A stretch of DNA of 64,000 bases from an uncultured Bacilli bacterium (GTDB lineage: Bacteria > Bacillota_I > Bacilli_A > RF39 > UBA660). The DNA lies in contig CAKOPG010000008.1 in NCBI GenBank assembly GCA_934098745.1, positions 6,897 to 70,896 on the forward strand. Reading direction: 5' to 3'. Positions within the stretch are counted from its first letter, which is position 1. Each line of letters begins with the position of its first letter. Shown one piece after another: positions 149 through 63,616 of this stretch. Position numbers and translations under genes: made by a program. The notes under the pieces were generated by a model. It did no database searches. It saw nothing but the letters and a program-made list of their open reading frames with translations, and was not told the DNA's origin.

Positions 149-1507
149 ATGGAATTAAAAAGAGAAATATTTAGAGAATATGATATAAGAGGAATATATC
201 AAGAAGAATTGGATGAAGAAACAGCATACTTAATAGGCAAGGCCTATGGTACAAAATTAAAGTCATACAATAAGACTAAAACCGTCGTAGCTCATGACAA
301 TAGATTGTCTTCGCCTAGTTTAAAAGAAGCTCTTGTCAAAGGACTATTAGAAACTGGTATAGATATTATTGATTTAGGACTTGCTACAACACCTATGTGC
401 TATTTTGCTGCTAATTTCTATAAAACCAACGCCAGTATGATAATTACTGCAAGCCATAACCCTAAAGAATATAATGGTTTTAAATTCTCATATAACGGTA
501 TTCATAATGCCTATGGCGATGCTGTTAGAGAAATCTATCATATCATTAAGAATAAAGAATTTTCTAAAGGAGAAGGTTATTTAGAGAAAAGAGATATTAC
601 CGAAGATTATATTAAATTAATAACCGAAAAATTATCTTTTGGTAATCGAAAGATTAAAGTAGTATTTGATTGTGGTAATGGAACTACTAGTATTATTGCC
701 AGAAAAATCTTTGATAAGTTGCCTATTGAAGCTATCCCCTTATTTGATATTTCCGATGGCAACTTTCCCAATCATCATCCAGACCCCTGTATTTATGAAA
801 ATTTAACCAAACTAAAAGAAAAAGTTTTAACAACAAATGCTGATTTAGGAATAGGTTACGATGGCGATGGTGATAGAGTAGGCTTTCTTGATGAACAAGG
901 TAACATGATTGAAGTAGATAAATTCATGATTATTATGTGGAAATATTTATATGATAAAGTAGAGAAGAAAGAATGCTTATTCGACGTTAAGTGTAGTAAA
1001 GCTCTAGAAGACGAGCTTCTTAAATTAGGTGTAAGACCTATAGAATATCGTACGGGCAATTCTTATACCCGAGCTGCTTCCGAAAGCTATGATTGCCCAC
1101 TAAGTGGAGAATTATCAGGACATGTCTATTTTCGCGATAAATTTCCTGGATATGATGACGGAATATATGCCGGCATGCGCCTAATAGAACTTTTATCACA
1201 TACGGATAAACCATTATCTAGAATGTTAGATGGTACAACTTCATATTTTTCAACCCCAGAAATTAAACAACATGTTAGTGACGATGAGAAATTTAAAGTA
1301 GTAGAAAAAATGAAAGAGTATGTTTTAAGTAAAGGCTATCGTATGGTTACCATTGATGGCGTTAAAGCCAAGTTTGATGATGGCTTTGCTTTGGTTAGAG
1401 CCTCAAATACTGGTCCAAATATTACCATGCGTTTTGAAGCAAAAACCGCAGAAAGACTTGAAGAAATTAAAAATGAGTTTTTAACAGAGCTTAACAAATA
1501 TATTTGA
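149..1507 (+). CDS. alpha-D-phosphohexomutase (phosphomannomutase/phosphoglucomutase type)
   Basis: 452 aa. TASHNP phosphoserine loop, GYDGDGDR metal-binding loop and GELSGH sugar loop. Substrate specificity cannot be set from sequence alone. Confidence 0.85.
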   Translation: MELKREIFREYDIRGIYQEELDEETAYLIGKAYGTKLKSYNKTKTVVAHDNRLSSPSLKEALVKGLLETGIDIIDLGLATTPMCYFAANFYKTNASMIITASHNPKEYNGFKFSYNGIHNAYGDAVREIYHIIKNKEFSKGEGYLEKRDITEDYIKLITEKLSFGNRKIKVVFDCGNGTTSIIARKIFDKLPIEAIPLFDISDGNFPNHHPDPCIYENLTKLKEKVLTTNADLGIGYDGDGDRVGFLDEQGNMIEVDKFMIIMWKYLYDKVEKKECLFDVKCSKALEDELLKLGVRPIEYRTGNSYTRAASESYDCPLSGELSGHVYFRDKFPGYDDGIYAGMRLIELLSHTDKPLSRMLDGTTSYFSTPEIKQHVSDDEKFKVVEKMKEYVLSKGYRMVTIDGVKAKFDDGFALVRASNTGPNITMRFEAKTAERLEEIKNEFLTELNKYI

Positions 1508-6864: not shown

Positions 6865-7591
6865 TTATCATAAAAATAAACCCAATCACAAAGAATAATC
6901 TAGCACTCTTATTATTATAATCTTTCCCTGTAGGCAGTAATTTACTAAATGATATCTGAATCATTATTCCCGCAATAAAACTAAATAATAACCCTAATAC
7001 CATATCATTTACATATTTTCCTATAAACAAATAAGTAATTATAGCTCCCACTAATTCTGATAAAGCCGATATTAAAGTATATAAAATAGCTTTGAATTTA
7101 CTTTTCGTAGAATAATATATTGGAATAGCTATACTGATACCTTCTGGTATATTGTGCAAAGCAATAGCTATACATATAGATAAACCCAACATAATATTCT
7201 TATTACTTACTATAAAAGTAACTATACCTTCTGGTATATTATGAAGAATAATGGCTATCATCGATAAAATACCTACTTTAAATAAACTGTTTCCTTCGCT
7301 ATATTTATCTACTGTTTTATCAAGTATCATTGAAATAATAACACCAATCATTAAAGCTATAAAAATTATTACAATAAGTAATATTCCATTATAATTATTT
7401 CTTAAATAATTAAATGATTCTGGTATTAAATCAAAAATAGATACACATACCATAACTCCCGAAGCAAAAGCACAAGCTGAAGCTATCAACTTATCTTGAT
7501 TTTTAAATTTAACAAAAATAGGTATCGTGCCAATCATCGTAGCTAAACCAGCTAAAGTAGTCAATATAAATGGTATAAACATATAAATCAC
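6833..7591 (-). CDS. zupT: ZIP-family zinc/metal transporter
   Basis: 252 aa, polytopic. Duplicated HNIPEG motifs are diagnostic of ZIP/ZupT transporters. Confidence 0.85.
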   Translation of the reverse strand: MIYMFIPFILTTLAGLATMIGTIPIFVKFKNQDKLIASACAFASGVMVCVSIFDLIPESFNYLRNNYNGILLIVIIFIALMIGVIISMILDKTVDKYSEGNSLFKVGILSMIAIILHNIPEGIVTFIVSNKNIMLGLSICIAIALHNIPEGISIAIPIYYSTKSKFKAILYTLISALSELVGAIITYLFIGKYVNDMVLGLLFSFIAGIMIQISFSKLLPTGKDYNNKSARLFFVIGFIFMIISLLLNHLFS

Positions 7592-43020: not shown

Positions 43021-43057
43021 TATCTTACGTCAGTCCCTTTGGGATAAATAAAAAAGA
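43021..43057 (+). repeat. copy A of a conserved ~30-bp intergenic motif (TTACGTYAGTYCC-NNN-GGGATAA)
   Basis: ttatcttacgtcagtccctttgggataaataaaaaag is near-identical to 63580..63616 and, in reverse complement, to 59186..59214 and 61423..61453. Confidence 0.7.
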
Positions 43058-48382: not shown

Positions 48383-48478
48383 AAAAAAACTACCAAAGCA
48401 GTTGTTCTTACTAGAGTAAGTATTTAGGCCAAAGGCTTTTATTTTAACTCTCTATGTCATCTTAAATGGTATTAAGAC
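48383..48478 (-). ncRNA. tracrRNA: tracrRNA
   Basis: The minus strand reads GUUGUCUUAAUACCAUUUAAGAUGACAUAGAGAGUUAAAAUAAAAGCCUUUGGCCUAAAUACUUACUCUAGUAAGAACAACUGCUUUGGUAGUUUUUUU. It has a 23-nt perfect complement to the repeat core (48453..48475). The GUUAAAAUAA nexus is identical to the S. pyogenes tracrRNA, as I recall that sequence. Also present: the CUUAC-UCUA-GUAAG hairpin, a U7 tail, and its own promoter TTGACT-N17-TATTAT (-35 at 48508..48513, -10 at 48485..48490). Confidence 0.8.
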
Positions 48479-48520
48479 AACTACATAATATCACTTTTTA
48501 GAAAGGAAGTCAATTAGTAA

Positions 48521-51500
48521 ATGAAAAATTATAGTATAGGATTAGATATTGGTACAACCTCAGTTGGTTGGGCAATAATTGATAATAGTACATTCAAACT
48601 AATAAAAAAAGGAAACAAAAGACAAAGTATGTGGGGAGTAAGACTCTTTGATGAAGCAATATCCGCTGAAGGAAGAAGAAGTAGTAGAAGCTCTAGAAGA
48701 AGATACGAAAGAAGAAGACAAAGAATTAAATTATTACAAGAAATATTCAAAGGTGAAATAACAAAAGTTGATGCTGACTTTTTCAAAAAATTACATGACA
48801 GTTTTTATTCAACAGAAGATAAAACCAATAAAAAAGCAATATTAACTAATTATGATAAAATTAATATTTTTGGAAATAATAATAGAAAGCTAACTGAAAA
48901 GAAATATCCGACAATATACCATATTAGAAATAAAATTATTAACAGTAATGAAAAAGAAGATATTAGATTAATTTACTTAGCAATACATCATATCATTAAA
49001 TATCGTGGTAATTTCTTATATAATAGTGATAATTTTAGTGTTAATAACTTAAATATTAAAGAAAAATTACAAGAAACCTTTACTGAAATAAACTCTTTAT
49101 GTAAAGAAATAAATTTTAATTATGATGAAGTAAATGATAACTTATATGAGAAATTAGCAAAAGCATTATTAGAAAAATCAATAAATGATAAAAAAGTTTT
49201 AATAAAAGAATTATTAACAAATTACTTCAGCAAAGATTTCACAAATGAATTTATTAAATTAATTTTAGGTAATCAATTCAATATCTCAAAATTATTTAAT
49301 ATAGACTTAGAAGAAGAAATTAAACTTAATTTTAAAGGAACAGACTATGAAGATAAATATTCTGAACTAGAAAAAGCCCTTGAAGATAAAATATCAGTAT
49401 TAAATTTACTCAAAGAATTATATGATATGCTATTCTTAAAAAATTTATTTGGTAATAGTAGTGAAACAAATATATCATCCCTTATGATTAATAGATATGA
49501 TAAACATCATTTAGATTTAATGTTTTTAAAAAGATTACTTAAATATGATAAAAACATATATAAAGAATTTTTTAAAGATAAAAACAAAGATACTTCAAAA
49601 GAAGAATTGTGCATATATTCAAAATATGTAAATAACAAGATTACTTATGATGAATTTATAAATAAACTAAATAAATCATTAGAAAAAATATTTGATAACA
49701 ACATACCATTAAAATTAAAGGAAGAATACAATAAAGTTAAAATTGACATAGAAAATGGAACATTTTTACCTAAAATAACAAACCCTGATAATGGTAAATA
49801 TCCATATCAATTAAACAAAGATGAACTAATAAAAATAATCGAATCACAAGGGAAGTATTATAACTTTTTAAATGAGAAAGTAATTATAAATGGTAAACTT
49901 AAATATAAGCTAGTGCAACTACTAGAATTTAGAATTCCATATTATGTTGGACCACTTAATACTAATACAAATAAAAAAAATGTTTGCAATAAAAATGCCT
50001 GGCTAATTAAAAAAGATAATTATGCAAAAATTACACCATTCAATTTTGATGAAGTAATAGATAAAGAACAAACCGCAGAACAATTTATCACAAGAATGAT
50101 ATCTAACTGTACATATTTAATAAACGAAAAAGCCATTCCTAGTAATTCTATACTATATTCAAAATATAAAGTTTTAAATGAACTTAAACAAATTAAAATA
50201 AACAATGCAAAATTACCAATAGATTTACAACATAAAATATATGAAGAATTATTTTTAACTACCAACAAAACAATAACAGAAAAAATGTTTATTGACTTTA
50301 TAAAGAAGACAAACGAATACTCGATGTATAATGATATATTATTAATCGAAGGGTATTCAGATGATAAAAAGTTTGCTAATAATATGAAAAGCTATTATGA
50401 TTTCTTTGGAGAAAATGGTATCTTTAATAATACAGATTATACTACTGAAGATGCTGAAGAAATAATTAAATGGATAACTATCTTTGAAGACAAAGATATA
50501 TTAGAGCAAAAAGTAAGAAATAATTATCCAAAATTAAACGAACAACAAATTAAACAAATCATTACAAAAAAATATCGTGGATGGAGTAATCTTTCTAAAA
50601 AGTTACTTACAGGAATAATTTATAAAGATAAAATAACAGAAAATCCCAAATCTATAATGGATTTAATGTGGGAAACAAGTGAAAACTTTATGCAAATTAT
50701 GTTTAATAAAGAATATAAGTTTCAAGATAAAATTAATAAACTTAATGTAGTAAAAGATATAAATAAAATTAATTATTCACTAGTAGAAAACCTTGCTACC
50801 TCTCCAGCTACTAAAAAAGGAATATATCAAGCCTTAAAAGTAGTTGAAGAGTTGATTAACTATATGGGATATAGCCCTGAAAATATTATAATAGAAATGG
50901 CTAGAAGTGAAGAACTAAAGCAAAGAAAAGATAATCGAAAAGAATACCTAAAGAAAATATATATAAATTGTAAAAAAGATATTGATAACTATAATTCACT
51001 CTTTGCCGAATTAGAAAAAAAAGACAAAATAGATTCCGAAAAATTATTCTTATATTTTATCCAATTAGGTAGAAGCATCTATTCAAAAGAACCCTTAGAT
51101 ATAAATAATCTAGAATCATATGAAGTCGATCACATAATACCAAGAACTTTGATTAAAGATGATTCAATTGATAATAAAGTCTTAGTATTAAAAGAGGAAA
51201 ATCAAGAAAAAGCAGCAAGTTTTGTATTGCCAAGACATTTTAGAACAAACGAGATGATACAATGGTGGAAACATCTAAAAGACTTAAACCTAATTAGTTC
51301 AAAAAAATTTAATAACTTATGTCGAGATTATTATTCAGAAAAAGATATTGAAGGATTTATTAATAGACAATTAGTAGAAACAAGACAAATAGCTAAACAT
51401 GTAGCAAATATCTTAAATAATTTTTACAAAAGCACTAACATAATTTATTTACACGCCAACTTATCCAGTAATTATAGAGAAAAGTATGAATTGTTTAAAT

Positions 51501-52690
51501 ATCGAGAATTAAATGATTTCCATCATGCACATGACGCCTATTTAGCAAGTGTACTTGGTATATATCAAAAAAAATATCTCAATAAATCTACTGATTTTAA
51601 TAAATTAAAAGCATTGCAAAAAAAATTAAGTACTGCAGGAAAATATAATGAATTAAAATATGGTTATGTCATTAACAGTATCAACAATGAAGTAGCACGT
51701 TTTAATGAAGATACCGGTGAAATATTATTTGATGCTGACTATTTTAATGATACAATTAAAAACACTTTATATCAAAACGACATATTAATAAGTAAAAAAA
51801 CAGAGATTAAAACAGACAGATTTTATAAAGAAACAATATATAAAAAACATGATAAAAAAGTAAAATTCAATTTAAAAGAAAACTTAGATCCTTATTTATA
51901 TGGTGGATATACTGAAACAAACTATTCATACATGAAATTAATTGAATATCAAAAGAAAAATAAAAAAATTAATTCCTTAATTGGTATTCCTGTCTTACTA
52001 GAAAAAAACAAAAATAAAGAAAAACTAATTGATAACTACATTAAAAAAGCTTTCTCAATAGATAACTATATAGTAAAAAAAGCCAAATTACCATTTAATT
52101 TATTGCTTAATTATAAAAATCATAACTGTATAATTACTGGTTGCGCTACAGCCTCAGCAGAACTTGTCAATGCCAAAGAATTTACTTTAACAAAAAAAGA
52201 ACAAATAGAATACAAATACTTATTAAATTATATCTTCAATAATAAATATCCTAATAAAGAAAAATATCTAAAAGAAAATAAATTAAATGATATGAATTAT
52301 ATAGATTATCAAGAACATTGTAAAAAAGTATTTAATAGCCAAATAAATAACTTATTTACATTGATAATAGAACGTATTAAAACCAATTATCCTCTTTATA
52401 ATTCAATATATGAAAAATTAAACTTAGTTAAAAACTCCAAAGAATTTGCTAATTTACCACTTGAAATAAGTAATGAAGAAGCCAGAAAAGGTAATATATC
52501 AAAAACAATTATAATCAATCAATTATTCATAATGTTAAAGTGTAATCCAACCAATGTCAATTTAGAAAGACTAAATAAAACCGTTAAATTTAATAATAGA
52601 GTTGGCAGAACAAGTAGTGTTAATATTACATCAGCAACTATAATAAATAAATCAGTAACAGGTTTAAAGGAAAGAAAATATGAGTTTTAG
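48521..52690 (+). CDS. cas9: type II CRISPR-associated endonuclease Cas9
   Basis: 1389 aa. RuvC-I YSIGLDIGTTSVGWAII, Arg-rich bridge helix RRSSRSSRRRYERRRQRI, RuvC-II IIIEMARS, HNH YEVDHIIPRTLIKDDSIDNKVLV, RuvC-III DFHHAHDAYL. Confidence 0.97.
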   Translation: MKNYSIGLDIGTTSVGWAIIDNSTFKLIKKGNKRQSMWGVRLFDEAISAEGRRSSRSSRRRYERRRQRIKLLQEIFKGEITKVDADFFKKLHDSFYSTEDKTNKKAILTNYDKINIFGNNNRKLTEKKYPTIYHIRNKIINSNEKEDIRLIYLAIHHIIKYRGNFLYNSDNFSVNNLNIKEKLQETFTEINSLCKEINFNYDEVNDNLYEKLAKALLEKSINDKKVLIKELLTNYFSKDFTNEFIKLILGNQFNISKLFNIDLEEEIKLNFKGTDYEDKYSELEKALEDKISVLNLLKELYDMLFLKNLFGNSSETNISSLMINRYDKHHLDLMFLKRLLKYDKNIYKEFFKDKNKDTSKEELCIYSKYVNNKITYDEFINKLNKSLEKIFDNNIPLKLKEEYNKVKIDIENGTFLPKITNPDNGKYPYQLNKDELIKIIESQGKYYNFLNEKVIINGKLKYKLVQLLEFRIPYYVGPLNTNTNKKNVCNKNAWLIKKDNYAKITPFNFDEVIDKEQTAEQFITRMISNCTYLINEKAIPSNSILYSKYKVLNELKQIKINNAKLPIDLQHKIYEELFLTTNKTITEKMFIDFIKKTNEYSMYNDILLIEGYSDDKKFANNMKSYYDFFGENGIFNNTDYTTEDAEEIIKWITIFEDKDILEQKVRNNYPKLNEQQIKQIITKKYRGWSNLSKKLLTGIIYKDKITENPKSIMDLMWETSENFMQIMFNKEYKFQDKINKLNVVKDINKINYSLVENLATSPATKKGIYQALKVVEELINYMGYSPENIIIEMARSEELKQRKDNRKEYLKKIYINCKKDIDNYNSLFAELEKKDKIDSEKLFLYFIQLGRSIYSKEPLDINNLESYEVDHIIPRTLIKDDSIDNKVLVLKEENQEKAASFVLPRHFRTNEMIQWWKHLKDLNLISSKKFNNLCRDYYSEKDIEGFINRQLVETRQIAKHVANILNNFYKSTNIIYLHANLSSNYREKYELFKYRELNDFHHAHDAYLASVLGIYQKKYLNKSTDFNKLKALQKKLSTAGKYNELKYGYVINSINNEVARFNEDTGEILFDADYFNDTIKNTLYQNDILISKKTEIKTDRFYKETIYKKHDKKVKFNLKENLDPYLYGGYTETNYSYMKLIEYQKKNKKINSLIGIPVLLEKNKNKEKLIDNYIKKAFSIDNYIVKKAKLPFNLLLNYKNHNCIITGCATASAELVNAKEFTLTKKEQIEYKYLLNYIFNNKYPNKEKYLKENKLNDMNYIDYQEHCKKVFNSQINNLFTLIIERIKTNYPLYNSIYEKLNLVKNSKEFANLPLEISNEEARKGNISKTIIINQLFIMLKCNPTNVNLERLNKTVKFNNRVGRTSSVNITSATIINKSVTGLKERKYEF

Positions 52691-52749
52691 AACTACAAAT
52701 AATAAAGATAAAGTAGTGAAAACAATTGCTAGTAATTTAGATAAATTTC

Positions 52750-52758
52750 TGCTATAAT
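52750..52758 (+). promoter_or_regulatory. possible extended -10 promoter in the CRISPR leader
   Basis: TGcTATAAT at 52750..52758, about 100 nt before repeat 1. No good -35. Confidence 0.3.
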
Positions 52759-52859
52759 ATAACTTATAGACTGACATAAATATACATACCATTATAAAAT
52801 AATAAAGATTTCTATGTATTTATTTTATAATCTATTACCTATGAGGCGAGTGATACGAT

Positions 52860-53353
52860 TGTTTTATATTTATGTTATCTCAAATAGTATTGAAACTAAT
52901 CATGCAAGTGAGTAGTCCCAATCATCGTTTTAGATTTATGTCATCTTGAATGGTATTAAAACACACTCGATTTCACTTGGATAATCAGGGCTGTTTTAGA
53001 TTTATGTCATCTTAAATGGTATTAAAACAAATATAGCAAAGTGTTTTGCTTGTGGTGTGTTTTAGATTTATGTCATCTTGAACAATATTAAAACACTTCG
53101 TAAGATACGTACAACACCAATAGCGTTTTAAATCTATGTCACCTTTAATTGGTATTAAAACTTGTTTTAATACTTATATAAAAGCACCTATGTTTTATAT
53201 TTATGTCATCTTATATAGAATTTACATCAAAAATTTATAATCTTTACACGATTTAGATTGCCCTGTTTTAGATTTATGCTATCTTAAATGGTATTAAACT
53301 AATCTTTCTACTTATGCAAATTGGGAAGTGTTTTATATTTATGTCATTTTAAA
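52860..53353 (+). CRISPR. type II CRISPR array, 8 repeats / 7 spacers, heavily degenerate
   Basis: The 36-nt repeat is GTTTTAGATTTATGTCATCTTAAATGGTATTAAAAC. Repeats start at 52860, 52926, 52992, 53058, 53124 (37 nt), 53191, 53264 (35 nt) and 53329 (truncated). Six spacers are 30 nt and one is 37 nt. Only the repeat at 52992 is consensus and 52926 differs by 1 nt; the others carry 2 to more than 6 changes. Confidence 0.95.
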
Positions 53354-54410
53354 CAAAAAAAGAGTAGGGGGAATACCAAAGATCATTTAATTTAAAAAGA
53401 TGGAAAATTATCTGTTTAAAACATAACTTTCTTCAATTATGCGTTGCATCATCTACTTCAATCAGTATTAATAAATTATCACATTCTTTATCAAAAATAG
53501 CAAAGTCAATGTTTCTAATTTGCAATAATACTAGCTAAATTAAGAAGTATTATTTTTATCATCCTTAATAAATCATATTAATATTTTTTTAACATAAAAC
53601 AACACACTCCAACAATAAAATATTCGTTCGCTTTTAAAAATATAAAAAATAATAAAAAGATTACAAATATTAAATTTATATCATTATAATAAAAAACAGT
53701 AATAATATAATTAACTATACCTTAATAAATATATTATTTGTAGTCTTATTACTCTTTTTTGTCCTTTCAATTAAGTTCCTATAATATATATTATGTTAAC
53801 TTCTCTATATTTTTAAATTATATAATATATCCAAATAATAAAATATAATTAATAAATAAAAACCTTTAATTCATTTATATCTAAGTTTTCCTTTGTAATT
53901 CTAAACAATAGCAATTACATATAAATATTTATTATTTATTATTAATTATCTATTATTATCTATATAATATATATTAATAAGATTTATATATTAATAATAA
54001 ATAAACGACACTTAATTAACATCGCCTACACTCATACACTTACCAAAATTTGCACCGATTATGTCTTAGCTTATCACTTTATTCATCCACGATGCAAATT
54101 TTTTTAAGCAAAACATCTTACAATATTACATTACATAGTCTTCATCTTCTTATAATATTCAAAAACTATCATTCCTTCATCTTAACTAATTAACAAAGAA
54201 TTTTTCCTCCGCTAAAATTTGCATCGAGATTATCCTAGCTTATTAACTTATCCACCTACAATGCAAATTAAAATTAAATCATCTCTATAAATTTTGCATC
54301 GAATTCAACATATTAATATTCTTATCCATCATTATTTCAAAATTATATCAATTAATCATATAACGTATAATTTTATCTTAATTGCTAACACTATATAATG
54401 GAGGTTAACT

Positions 54411-59185: not shown

Positions 59186-59214
59186 TTATTATCCCCGAGG
59201 GACTAACGTAATAT
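59186..59214 (-). repeat. copy B of the conserved ~30-bp intergenic motif
   Basis: The plus strand reads ttattatccccgagggactaacgtaatat, i.e. the reverse complement of the copy A/D consensus. Confidence 0.65.
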
Positions 59215-61422: not shown

Positions 61423-61453
61423 CTATTATCCCTAAGGGACTAACGTAATATCT
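61423..61453 (-). repeat. copy C of the conserved ~30-bp intergenic motif
   Basis: The plus strand reads ctattatccctaagggactaacgtaatatct. Confidence 0.65.
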
Positions 61454-61470
61454 ATTACTAACATATATAT

Positions 61471-61501
61471 TAAAAATACCAATATAATCTATATTGGTAT
61501 T
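61471..61501 (-). terminator. rho-independent terminator of CDS 61546..63360
   Basis: Perfect 12-bp stem aataccaatata / tatattggtatt with a 3-nt loop, followed on the minus strand by TTTTT. Confidence 0.7.
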
Positions 61502-61545
61502 AACTTCTTTTTATAATATAGTAATTTAAGAGAAGTCGTTTACGC

Positions 61546-63360
61546 TTAAGCGAAGCACGCCACCGCACGGAAACCTTCGTTCACGTACGCAGCGCCGTTA
61601 GTGCCGCTGAAGTAGAAGACACCGGCATTGGCACCATTGTAACAGTAACCACCACGACCGAACCACGGGCTCGTGGCAGAAACAAAGTACGTGTAATCTC
61701 CATACCAGCTACTTGTTTCTGATAGACTTCGTCCATAACAATAGCCTCCACTACATGCCGTTAAAGCACTAATGGTTGTGCCACTACTTGCTTTGTATAC
61801 TTCATAATACTTAGATTCCGGAAAAGCTATTCCATCGGTTTTGGAAGTACCATTAGTTCCTAGTAAGCCATTAAAACCTGAATTTAATGAAGTAGAAAGA
61901 CCACTCCATAAGGTACCATCGGAATTAGCAAACACTCCCATCACTCTTTCCCATGCTCCACCAGACATATCAAAGATTCCTGATATATTACCAGTGGTAC
62001 TTTGCGGATATATTGAAGATGAACCATAAGTTATTCCGCATGTTGCACTATTACTAGCATTGACCGTACTGGCTCCACACCCGGTAAGTGTTTTTCTACT
62101 ATTCCAGTAATTATTAATTCTTACTTCGCTGTTTATCCCATACTTAGAGTGCGACAGATAAGCTACTGCTCCCCACTCATTATTCTTCATCATATGAGAA
62201 TTAGTAGTTGTGGTTAATCCATATGTATTACTACCAGAGAATGTTGTAGTTCCATTACTAAGTGTTCCCCCAGCAAATTTTAAACCTACAATAAAAGCTG
62301 TTGATATATTTTGATCAGTTAATGATGCCACATTAGGCTTTATCGTCGGAGTCGTCGCATTTCCGGTAGTTTCAAATTTGCCTACCCAAATACCATTTAA
62401 TTCCGTATCCCCAAATGTAAATGCCGGATGTGTTAAATACTCTCCAATTTGTGTTCCTATTGACTTTGTCGTATCTTTATCTTCAAAAACAATCTCTATC
62501 TCTTGTTCTTGTCCCTGTGCACTAGTACCTACAGTCCATATTTTATACTTATATCTCGGTATCCAGACATAATATGTCAAGATACTATCTTCTGGTATTG
62601 TCACCCCTGTTGTATTTAGATAACTACTCCTTGACGATTCTGTTACCAGTACGGCATTCGCCCATTGTTGTTCATCATAATTATACCACGATGCATCACT
62701 ACTAGATATTGTTGTTACTGTTCCATTATCAGCTATTGTTACCGGAATCATGCCACTATCTAATTCTGGAGCACTAGGTTTAACCGGTGCTTGATCTATA
62801 CAACTACCCCCAAGAGATAGGCTAAAAGTTTGATTCATCGTATCACTCGATGTTTCTTCTTTATCTAACCATATCCATAAATAATATGTATCTGTTGTTG
62901 TACTAGAATATTCTTTTGAACTTAATAATCTTACTCTATTATTTGTTGCTTTTCCGGTAAATGTTCCTGATGATACCGGATTATCACAACTATCAGCACT
63001 TGTTGTTAAAGCATATCTAAAATTATTACTGTTAGTTAAACCGGTTCCTATACTATTTATCGTTAACCATAAATCCATATAAATAGTCTTACCACTCTTA
63101 GTAATTGTTGGTGTTACTTTTACTTCTCTCTTTATAGCATACTTACTATTTGTACATTCACATGGTGCTAAAGTTATATCATTAGACGTTATATTACCGC
63201 CACCATCAGCTGCACAACTAAAATCACCCGTTACTGTAAATACCACATTAGTTTTCTCATTTTCAGATGTTTGCCATGTAAAATATGCAAAAGTACTACC
63301 TACAATTACAAATATTAATGATAATACCACTAAAATAATAGACACTCTTTTATTCTTCAT
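61546..63360 (-). CDS. secreted protein with a TasA/SipW-type signal peptide and an FGE/C-type-lectin-like C-terminal region; candidate DGR target
   Basis: 604 aa. N-terminal MKNKRVSIILVVLSLIFVIVGSTFAYFT resembles SipW-cognate signal peptides. C-terminal ...WFGRGGYCYNG...NEGFRAVACFA fits the RGG...GFR end of FGE/CLec-fold domains. Confidence 0.75.
   Translation of the reverse strand: MKNKRVSIILVVLSLIFVIVGSTFAYFTWQTSENEKTNVVFTVTGDFSCAADGGGNITSNDITLAPCECTNSKYAIKREVKVTPTITKSGKTIYMDLWLTINSIGTGLTNSNNFRYALTTSADSCDNPVSSGTFTGKATNNRVRLLSSKEYSSTTTDTYYLWIWLDKEETSSDTMNQTFSLSLGGSCIDQAPVKPSAPELDSGMIPVTIADNGTVTTISSSDASWYNYDEQQWANAVLVTESSRSSYLNTTGVTIPEDSILTYYVWIPRYKYKIWTVGTSAQGQEQEIEIVFEDKDTTKSIGTQIGEYLTHPAFTFGDTELNGIWVGKFETTGNATTPTIKPNVASLTDQNISTAFIVGLKFAGGTLSNGTTTFSGSNTYGLTTTTNSHMMKNNEWGAVAYLSHSKYGINSEVRINNYWNSRKTLTGCGASTVNASNSATCGITYGSSSIYPQSTTGNISGIFDMSGGAWERVMGVFANSDGTLWSGLSTSLNSGFNGLLGTNGTSKTDGIAFPESKYYEVYKASSGTTISALTACSGGYCYGRSLSETSSWYGDYTYFVSATSPWFGRGGYCYNGANAGVFYFSGTNGAAYVNEGFRAVACFA
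61549..61695 (-). other. candidate DGR variable region (VR)
   Basis: These are the last 49 sense codons of the gene. G+C is 77/130 in 61551..61680. Only one codon (GAA) ends in A. Most codons are NNC/NNT, in sharp contrast with the upstream codons of the same gene. Confidence 0.55.
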
Positions 63361-63379
63361 AATTACCTACTTTCTATAT

Positions 63380-63402
63380 CCCTAAGTATAATACTTAAGG
63401 AC
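63380..63402. repeat. left inverted repeat (IRL) of the candidate invertible promoter element
   Basis: ccctaagtataatacttaaggac is the perfect 23/23 reverse complement of 63550..63572. It lies 20 nt upstream of the start codon at 63360. Confidence 0.85.
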
Positions 63403-63491
63403 CCTTTTGTATGCATATGAATATCTTACATTATAAGGCTTTAAGACACATTTTAAAGAATATAAAAGTAGATAAAAAGTTAAATTTTGTA

Positions 63492-63520
63492 TTTACAGAA
63501 AATAAGTGTTATGCTATAAT
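63492..63520 (+). promoter_or_regulatory. near-consensus sigma-A promoter inside the IR-bounded segment, currently facing away from the gene
   Basis: TTTACA (63492..63497), 17-nt spacer ending in TGc, TATAAT (63515..63520). Confidence 0.65.
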
Positions 63521-63549
63521 TTATATAGGTTAAATAAAGATAGAGGTGT

Positions 63550-63572
63550 GTCCTTAAGTATTATACTTAGGG
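63550..63572. repeat. right inverted repeat (IRR); on the plus strand it also forms a hairpin plus T-run
   Basis: gtccttaagtattatacttaggg is internally palindromic (about 10-bp stem, 3-nt loop). It is followed by caTTTTTT, so it acts as a terminator for the promoter in its present orientation. Confidence 0.8.
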
Positions 63573-63579
63573 GCATTTT

Positions 63580-63616
63580 TTATCTTACGTCAGTTCCTCT
63601 GGGATAAATAAAAAAG
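63580..63616 (+). repeat. copy D of the conserved ~30-bp intergenic motif
   Basis: ttatcttacgtcagttcctctgggataaataaaaaag differs from copy A (43021..43057) at 2 of 37 positions (35/37 identical). Confidence 0.7.

Follow-up and report, generated by a model that had tools for sequence, protein, structure and literature searches.

The window analysed here is the whole 64,000-nucleotide stretch of contig CAKOPG010000008.1 (forward-strand positions 6,897 to 70,896; assembly GCA_934098745.1) from an uncultured Bacilli bacterium. Near its right end lies a gene for a 604-residue protein, with a promoter element bounded by inverted repeats at its 5' end and a variable region (VR) of a diversity-generating retroelement (DGR) at its 3' end. 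An original prediction, made from the DNA letters alone, had proposed both elements as candidates and had joined them in the idea of one gene with two layers of variation, an ON/OFF promoter inversion and a hypervariable C-terminus. Neither component failed in the analysis described below, and the joint idea is supported with caveats. We consider it probable that the two programmed-variation mechanisms, promoter inversion and DGR mutagenesis, converge on this gene and on its paralog family, and that the gene product is a secreted or surface protein with a ligand-binding domain of the C-type-lectin fold.

From its N-terminus, the protein comprises a signal/anchor helix, a β-sandwich module (residues ~37-270), and a C-terminal domain resembling C-type lectins and formylglycine-generating enzymes (CLec/FGE-like), which ends in the variable region. 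The promoter element spans 195 bp (63379..63573) directly upstream of the start codon. The positions of all features of the gene and its flanks are collected in Table 1. The loci compared with the window were, like the window itself, read from consensus assemblies.

Table 1. Features of the window gene and its flanks, in window positions.
Feature	Position	Strand	Basis
Coding sequence (CDS), 604 aa	61546..63360	-	List of open reading frames (ORFs) and translation
GSTFAYFT codons (residues 21-28), end of N-terminal hydrophobic helix, SipW/TasA-like motif	63277..63300	-	Translation
DGR variable region (VR), 144 nt, last 48 codons before final Ala and stop	61551..61694	-	Match to template repeat L093:2034-2177
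Flank 3' of VR including stop codon, candidate target-recognition sequence on the side of the initiation of mutagenic homing (IMH)	61516..61550	-	Alignments of paralog targets
Intrinsic terminator of CDS, 12-bp stem then U-run	61469..61501	-	RNA fold and sequence
Gene-proximal inverted repeat, near-palindromic core CCCTAAGTA-TAA-TACTTAAGG	63379..63402	.	Repeat comparison
Gene-distal inverted repeat	63550..63573	.	23/24 complementary to proximal arm
Putative invertible segment between repeats, 147 nt	63403..63549	.	Homologous segments upstream of paralogs
Sigma-70-type promoter TTTACA-N17-TGcTATAAT, pointing away from CDS (OFF)	63492..63520	+	11/12 with extended -10
Weaker promoter-like site TTTAAA-16-TATAAT inside element, toward CDS in present orientation	63430..63457	-	10/12
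Motif copy TTATCCCTAAGGGACTAACGTAA, downstream of CDS	61426..61448	+	Motif scan
Motif copy, 19/23, between ftsZ terminator and distal repeat	63585..63607	-	Motif scan

Promoter element and its orientation among paralogs

Each 24-nt arm of the element is a 9-3-9 near-palindrome, and the proximal arm ends 18 nt ahead of the ATG. The outward-pointing sigma-70-type site between the arms, a strong near-consensus promoter, scores higher than any other promoter match in the region; with this promoter facing the wrong way, the gene is probably off in the sequenced window. A transcript leaving in the OFF direction passes through the distal arm, for which a hairpin of -26.5 kcal/mol (z = -3.0) followed by a U-run is calculated. 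The arm provides a 13-bp stem plus TTTTTATCTT, the T-run extends to ~63586, and the scan calls the structure terminator-like. In the ON direction, the hairpin formed by the proximal repeat is weak and lacks a U-run. In the mechanism that we propose, a site-specific recombinase encoded elsewhere would invert the 195-bp element by crossover at the repeat centres. As long as the promoter faces away, transcripts would run into the distal repeat and its T-run terminator, whereas inversion would send them across the proximal repeat and on into the ribosome-binding site and CDS. A 40-residue ORF called inside the element by the gene caller was rejected as a real gene, and Rfam gave no match at the switch.

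Seven different family genes, distributed over five loci, are each preceded at the same distance by a homologous element with an inner length of 150-152 bp. The promoter hexamers and their spacing are kept in all elements; five of the seven distinct elements have the promoter directed away from the gene, and the remaining two (L002:12252-12443 and L005:10850-11041) have it directed toward the gene. The window segment is 83-91% identical to copies of its own orientation and aligns with the ON copies (85-86%) only when these are reverse-complemented. Two elements of opposite orientation lie 2.4 kb apart on the same contig: over its inner 150 bp, the OFF element preceding P0003 (L002:9792-9983) is 100% identical to the reverse complement of the downstream ON element (L002:12252-12443), whereas direct comparison of the two yields 61% identity. 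Moreover, the asymmetric half-sites (TTAGGG versus TTAAGG) and the inner flanks (TTAGGGACACAC / AAAGGTCC) are swapped as a central crossover predicts. Further, in every one of the seven distinct elements, the central triplets of the two arms are reverse complements of each other, although two or three types of triplet occur (TAA/TTA or TAT/ATA).

The assemblies themselves carry an additional trace. Contigs L093 and L005 start just after the single C/T that separates ON from OFF junctions, and the end of L002 overlaps the start of L093 by exactly 55 nt. Such breaks are what a de Bruijn assembler would be expected to leave if the reads contained both orientations, and they hint at mixed reads at these two loci, which are not that of the window. 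Through the 55-nt overlap, P0005, which is the target beside the DGR core, is also seen to lie immediately behind an ON-oriented switch. Owing to the complete inverted identity, the half-site swap, the co-variation of the triplets, and the orientation-dependent contig breaks, the pattern argues for site-specific inversion over static palindromes, and the invertible promoter of the original prediction is borne out to this extent by its paralogs.

The repeats could instead be palindromic operator or terminator copies around a fixed promoter, with the opposite orientations at paralogs dating from old, fixed rearrangements. Such an arrangement would account for arms that look inverted by construction, being near-palindromic, and for a distal arm that doubles as a terminator hairpin. 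It also draws on observations that weigh against inversion at the window itself: a motif scan of the window ORFs revealed no serine or tyrosine recombinase, none was found beside the paralog loci, and the window locus appears in the OFF orientation alone, both here and in the independent assembly L001/L095. In addition, the weaker gene-facing site within the element, whose -10 is conserved among copies while its -35 region is not, may sustain basal expression, so that OFF may mean low rather than zero. An ancient rearrangement, however, would have diverged like the other copies (77-91%) rather than leave an ON/OFF pair without a single inner difference. Nor does a static arrangement explain why the exchange of half-sites and inner flanks falls precisely at the core centre, why the asymmetric central triplets co-vary in every distinct element, why the inner length is held within 2 bp, or why two contigs break at the orientation-dependent base. 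We therefore regard static repeats as improbable and retain site-specific inversion.

The only recombinase seen near these loci is an XerD-like tyrosine recombinase (L090:9078-9983; TIGR02225, 311 bits, just below the cut-off), which lies just left of window position 1 and directly upstream of glmM (window 149..1507). This protein is probably a housekeeping Xer. The invertase acting on the elements may be encoded elsewhere in the genome, by analogy with Mpi.

The C-terminal variable region and its remote template

The 3' end of the CDS is GC-rich (50-64%, versus ~26% across the window), and residues ~556-596 are scrambled among homologs that are 76-95% identical otherwise. In six paralogs, the variable sites of the last 150 nt (61549..61698) are distributed over codon positions 1/2/3 as 25/23/12, whereas the 92 nt upstream of the VR show 2/4/10 in the same six. 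Adenine is found at 3 of the 90 invariant bases in the variable stretch of these 3' ends (3%) and at 24 of 76 just upstream (32%). A template repeat (TR) was inferred from the VRs before one was discovered, and the actual TR on contig L093 reads almost exactly as inferred. L093 comes from the same sample as L001, which is a near-identical twin of the window contig. It encodes, in this order, the paralog P0005 (88% identical), the 144-nt TR (L093:2034-2177), a MutS-domain-I-like ORF, the accessory protein bAvd (PF22296; NF033474 at E = 1e-21), and an RVT_1 reverse transcriptase (RT, 347 aa).

The window VR is identical to this TR at 124 of 144 positions, and 15 of the 20 mismatches coincide with TR adenines (34 A in 144 nt; p = 1.8e-6). 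In other VRs, the share of mismatches at adenine sites ranges from 14/17 to 22/25, and the VR adjoining the L093 cassette deviates at a non-adenine position in 1 of 18 cases. Ordinary recombination or gene conversion combined with diversifying selection might produce C-terminal diversity without any retroelement, as the many paralogs with near-identical flanks could exchange segments. This origin is highly improbable: it does not account for the 143 of 176 TR differences, pooled over eight VRs, that fall on the 24% of TR positions that are adenine, for the depletion of adenine among invariant VR bases, or for a GC-rich VR in a 26% GC genome, and TR, Avd, and RT are all present.

Relatives of the family repeat the arrangement. 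Among 80 family loci in JGI metagenomes, at least 9 contain an adjacent TR/VR pair with A-biased mismatches, and several of these carry Avd-like ORFs together with RT ORFs bearing a YMDD motif; the RT of L046 was confirmed as PF00078. Structural comparison leads to the same class of proteins. An AlphaFold2 (AF2) model of the 604-residue protein, built from a 94-sequence alignment with a mean predicted local distance difference test (pLDDT) score of 82.8, finds its best Foldseek match in TaqVP, the variable protein of a Thermus DGR (PDB 5VF4, whose identity as TaqVP was confirmed; probability 1.00, E 1.8e-7), and the significant PDB matches are limited to three TaqVP chains. The family profile matches 5vf4 by sequence as well (E = 0.006). 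An earlier AF2 model from 24 sequences had a pLDDT below 50 in the C-terminal half and an uninformative fold search; against Pfam and NCBIfam, the protein gave no match. In the present model, the variable region is displayed at the C-terminus on a C-type-lectin scaffold. Because of the adenine-biased TR match, the TR, Avd, and RT on L093, the TR/VR pairs of relatives, and the TaqVP fold, the VR call of the original prediction is supported; the DGR itself sits on another contig and acts in trans.

Several other searches for the template gave negative results. No template repeat was found inside the window by blastn or next to most paralogs, a motif scan over all window ORFs detected no RT, and contig walks did not find an RT beside P0002, P0003, P0007, P0008, P0012, P0019, P0033, or glmM; P0005 was the one paralog accompanied by the cassette. 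JGI metagenomes and IMG/VR were scanned with degenerate VR/TR patterns, with 0 matches, and a protein search with the inferred TR translation retrieved TR-derived ORFs of other DGRs, with this TR absent among them. From the shared sample, the paralogs of 88-95% identity, the identical switch sequences, and the 55-nt overlap to L002, we infer that the L093 DGR contig and the window belong to the same genome.

The cassettes of the family contain, between TR and Avd, a small accessory ORF that resembles MutS domain I (L093:2467-2769; L046:12546-12992), the L046 copy matching PF01624 at E = 6e-9. A relative of a mismatch-binding domain inside a mutagenic retroelement merits a closer look.

Some observations weigh against the DGR layer at the window. 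The TR and RT lie on a contig other than the window's. The VR reads the same in the window, L001, and L096, five of its 20 TR mismatches fall on bases other than adenine, and no other target has a 3' flank as diverged. Homology to the TR stops after GCGTGCTTCG, and the ~35 nt beyond are kept among four targets and are more diverged in the window copy, which differs from the consensus of the others by a 1-nt deletion and several substitutions; DNA folding yielded no significant hairpin in this flank. The window copy may no longer be rewritten by the DGR. In that case the architecture would be real, but the VR would have been written earlier and would since have drifted, leaving the gene to vary by its ON/OFF switch alone. 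Both the excess of non-adenine mismatches over the 1 in 18 beside the cassette and the loss of DGR targeting elsewhere in the family (P0033, a 505-residue protein, and the decayed cassette of L038, all described below) fit such a fossil target.

The same observations admit a milder reading, however. The three assemblies represent one strain, the VR and downstream DNA in the third sample being 470/470 identical including the non-coding part, so that identity among them says little about rates. The last 25 nt of TR homology at the 3' end of the window VR are intact save one change, and other paralog VRs also show non-adenine differences. At one position the TR disagrees with every VR, a sign that the TR itself may have drifted. 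Further, orthologs at the P0007 locus from different samples (P0006 versus P0007) differ in their VR. A fossil target thus appears to us possible but unlikely, and we retain the reading in which the window VR may still be rewritten. Among the paralogs, both orientations and differing VRs are found; the window locus is seen in the OFF orientation alone, and its VR is the same in the three same-strain assemblies.

In the proposed mechanism, TR complementary DNA (cDNA) with adenine-specific errors would overwrite the VR in each paralog whose target sequence is preserved, and each replacement would recode ~15-17 AAY codons in the binding surface. With a switch at each paralog, a cell population would express changing subsets of the family. 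The scheme presumes that the recombinase is active, that the window VR is still a competent target, and that the two layers act independently, as the original prediction had assumed. A coupling between them is conceivable but doubtful: promoter orientation or transcription state might gate DGR retrohoming, such that silent copies are rewritten offline and later sampled ON, or the reverse. Nothing in the present data favours this coupling. If it were true, the family would be an archive of diversified binding domains drawn by inversion, a bacterial repertoire-plus-selection system.

Signal motif, flanking repeats, and gene neighbourhood

The TasA/SipW-like signal peptide named in the original prediction holds at the level of the motif. 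GSTFAYFT closes the N-terminal hydrophobic helix, and variants of it are kept across the family (GGTLAYFSW and similar). On the other side, no SipW-type signal and no TasA/camelysin domain of NCBIfam or Pfam matched the 604-residue protein, even at E <= 1-10, and the N-terminal β-sandwich shows a weak fold match to the TasA fibre 8aur (probability 0.75-0.92, E 0.008-0.03, template modelling (TM) score 0.32-0.33). The assignment to a TasA/SipW-type signal is one of motif resemblance only.

A 30-bp motif had further been described on both sides of the gene. A 23-nt core of it indeed flanks the CDS, its two copies being inverted relative to each other (Table 1). Two more copies occur in the window (43025..43047 and 59189..59211), bringing the total to four against 0 in shuffles, and others were found outside it at L006:7720-7742, L006:9795-9817, and L001:711-733, usually beside terminators. 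Because of the further copies elsewhere in the window, the motif is taken from its sequence distribution to be a dispersed intergenic repeat that is not specific to the window gene; Rfam gave no match to it.

The bracketing by inverted copies nevertheless recurs. At L006, in a different genomic context between unrelated flanking genes, the order motif-switch-gene-motif is found again with an identical motif-to-repeat junction. Bracketing at two unrelated loci hints that the unit moved as a cassette, and the segment 61426..63607 between the motif copies could accordingly be a mobile or invertible cassette in its own right, for which the over-representation of the motif also speaks. We regard such a cassette as improbable, since the other window copies (43025 and 59189) lie in unrelated intergenic regions beside terminators, the paralogs of the tandem arrays (L002 and L089) lack the motif, and a transposase is absent; a target-site duplication was neither sought nor seen. 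Inversion of the 195-bp promoter element remains our reading of the upstream region.

Upstream of the window gene are ftsZ and ftsA, beyond the right window end, while a DUF1287 gene, an amidoligase-like gene, and an M23 peptidase gene follow downstream. Sporulation genes are present in the neighbourhood, and the host was called a low-GC spore-forming human-gut Firmicute; its species is present in human-gut samples, one of them Hadza.

Away from the gene, the window contains a type II CRISPR-Cas locus (48443-53301) with a cas9 of 1389 aa (48521..52690), an array of ~7 repeats of 36-37 nt directly after it (52861..53301), and an anti-repeat-like copy upstream (48443..48479); between the array and 54676, no ORF of >=100 aa that might encode Cas1 was found. 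The 1.4-kb stretch without long ORFs from the CRISPR array to the next gene holds two 56-nt direct repeats (54045-54100 and 54214-54269), which are 77% identical and have the ends AAATTTGCA...TGCAAATT. A 6S RNA (RF00013, 67.4 bits; 1586-1769, + strand) is the sole Rfam match at the gathering threshold in the window.

A paralog family under two proposed layers of variation

The original prediction placed both layers on a single protein. Both are indeed found on the window gene, but the unit is larger: at least eight to nine paralogs are present in the sample, namely P0014, P0003, P0005, a partial copy upstream of ftsA, the window gene, P0007, P0033, and a 505-residue protein. P0014, P0003, and P0005 are probably one array that ends in the DGR core. 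One TR appears to serve the VRs of at least six paralogs, and the data support a switch of its own for each of the at least eight to nine paralogs, which makes the unit a family-wide system rather than a single gene. In metagenomes, the window CDS has more than 7,400 homologs, a few of them with a recorded FGE-sulfatase domain (PF03781), and a scan of GTDB genomes with the alignment of close homologs returned 2 distant loci only. P0012 and P0019 (L007 and L008), of ~1000 aa, contain two tandem CLec modules, each with a VR-like end.

The two layers do not cover the same set of genes. P0033 has an AT-rich end and no VR. The 505-residue protein (L089:10850-12581) shares the N-terminal signal and β-sandwich module alone, carries an AT-rich unrelated C-terminal domain without VR, and still stands behind an ON switch. 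Because of this last case, the switch regulon appears to be wider than the set of DGR targets, its proteins having the N-terminal module in common but differing in their heads, of which some are diversified by the DGR. At L038, a 59%-identical homolog is encoded behind an ON-oriented element of the same geometry with a different repeat (GGTACTAAAGTA..TACTTTAGTACC). At the same locus (L038:9765-12900), the gene end is GC-rich, A-poor, and VR-like, the TR has an internal deletion, the accessory gene is truncated, and both Avd and RT are missing; the whole is best described as a decaying DGR beside a still-intact inverton.

Each layer is of a known kind, CLec-fold targets being familiar from other DGRs, where some of them are likewise remote from the RT. 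What appears to be new is the pairing of the two layers on one protein family. Literature searches, including full text, for a DGR with an invertible promoter, inverton, or phase-variable element found no paper on the combination, in agreement with the original prediction, whose author knew of no description of the two as a unit. The family resembles the DGR variable proteins of the CLec fold, such as TaqVP (5VF4), Treponema denticola TvpA, and Bordetella phage Mtd, in placing the VR at the extreme C-terminus of a CLec/FGE-like domain, in its adenine-specific TR differences, and in the Avd and RT that accompany the TR on L093. In contrast to these systems, the window target is remote from the RT and the template appears to serve several paralogs; the protein has an extra N-terminal signal and β-sandwich module; the cassette includes a MutS-domain-I-like gene; and each target has an apparently invertible promoter, for which the literature searched reports no counterpart in those systems.

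On the side of the switch, other bacteria offer several precedents. The capsular-polysaccharide promoters of Bacteroides fragilis, as an example of gut invertons, are dispersed, share an inverted-repeat consensus, are inverted by the Mpi invertase, and occur in mixed orientation in gut populations. The present elements likewise are dispersed promoters with a common repeat consensus and a presumed trans-acting recombinase. They differ in that they precede single DGR-diversified protein genes in a low-GC Firmicute rather than polysaccharide operons in Bacteroidota, and in that the window repeat is a 9-3-9 near-palindrome doubling as a terminator. In Clostridioides difficile, the cwpV and flagellar switches (RecV) have an invertible element between promoter region and CDS, with a terminator structure in the OFF state; the cwpV promoter itself stays fixed, and the terminator is formed by the invertible 5' untranslated region. 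The window gene shares with cwpV a Firmicute surface-protein gene under an invertible element and a terminator tied to the OFF state, whereas its promoter lies inside the element and its terminator halts outward transcription. The mpl genes (P35 family) of Mycoplasma penetrans, as summarized in PMC10502178 citing Horino 2003, are surface-protein paralogs, partly in tandem, each turned ON or OFF via inversion of its own short promoter flanked by inverted repeats. The likeness to the present family extends to the partly tandem paralogs and the per-gene promoter inversion; the mpl products are lipoproteins that are not known to undergo retroelement hypervariation, and their repeats and proteins are unrelated to those of the window family.

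Among the programmed-variation devices known from gut bacteria, DGRs and invertible promoters are the principal two, and they have so far been studied separately. Here they would meet in at least eight individually switchable paralogs, at least six of which share one template able to recode ~15-17 codons of a lectin-like surface. Such a combination multiplies surface phenotypes, as the paralogs expressed are combined with the sequences they carry. The outer repeat that doubles as an OFF-state terminator is a compact design that may be reusable. The family is thus a natural system for studying what remote DGR targets need and how transcription state relates to retrohoming, and also for finding the ligands, be they phage, host glycans, or other bacteria, that stand behind such an investment in an uncultured gut Firmicute.

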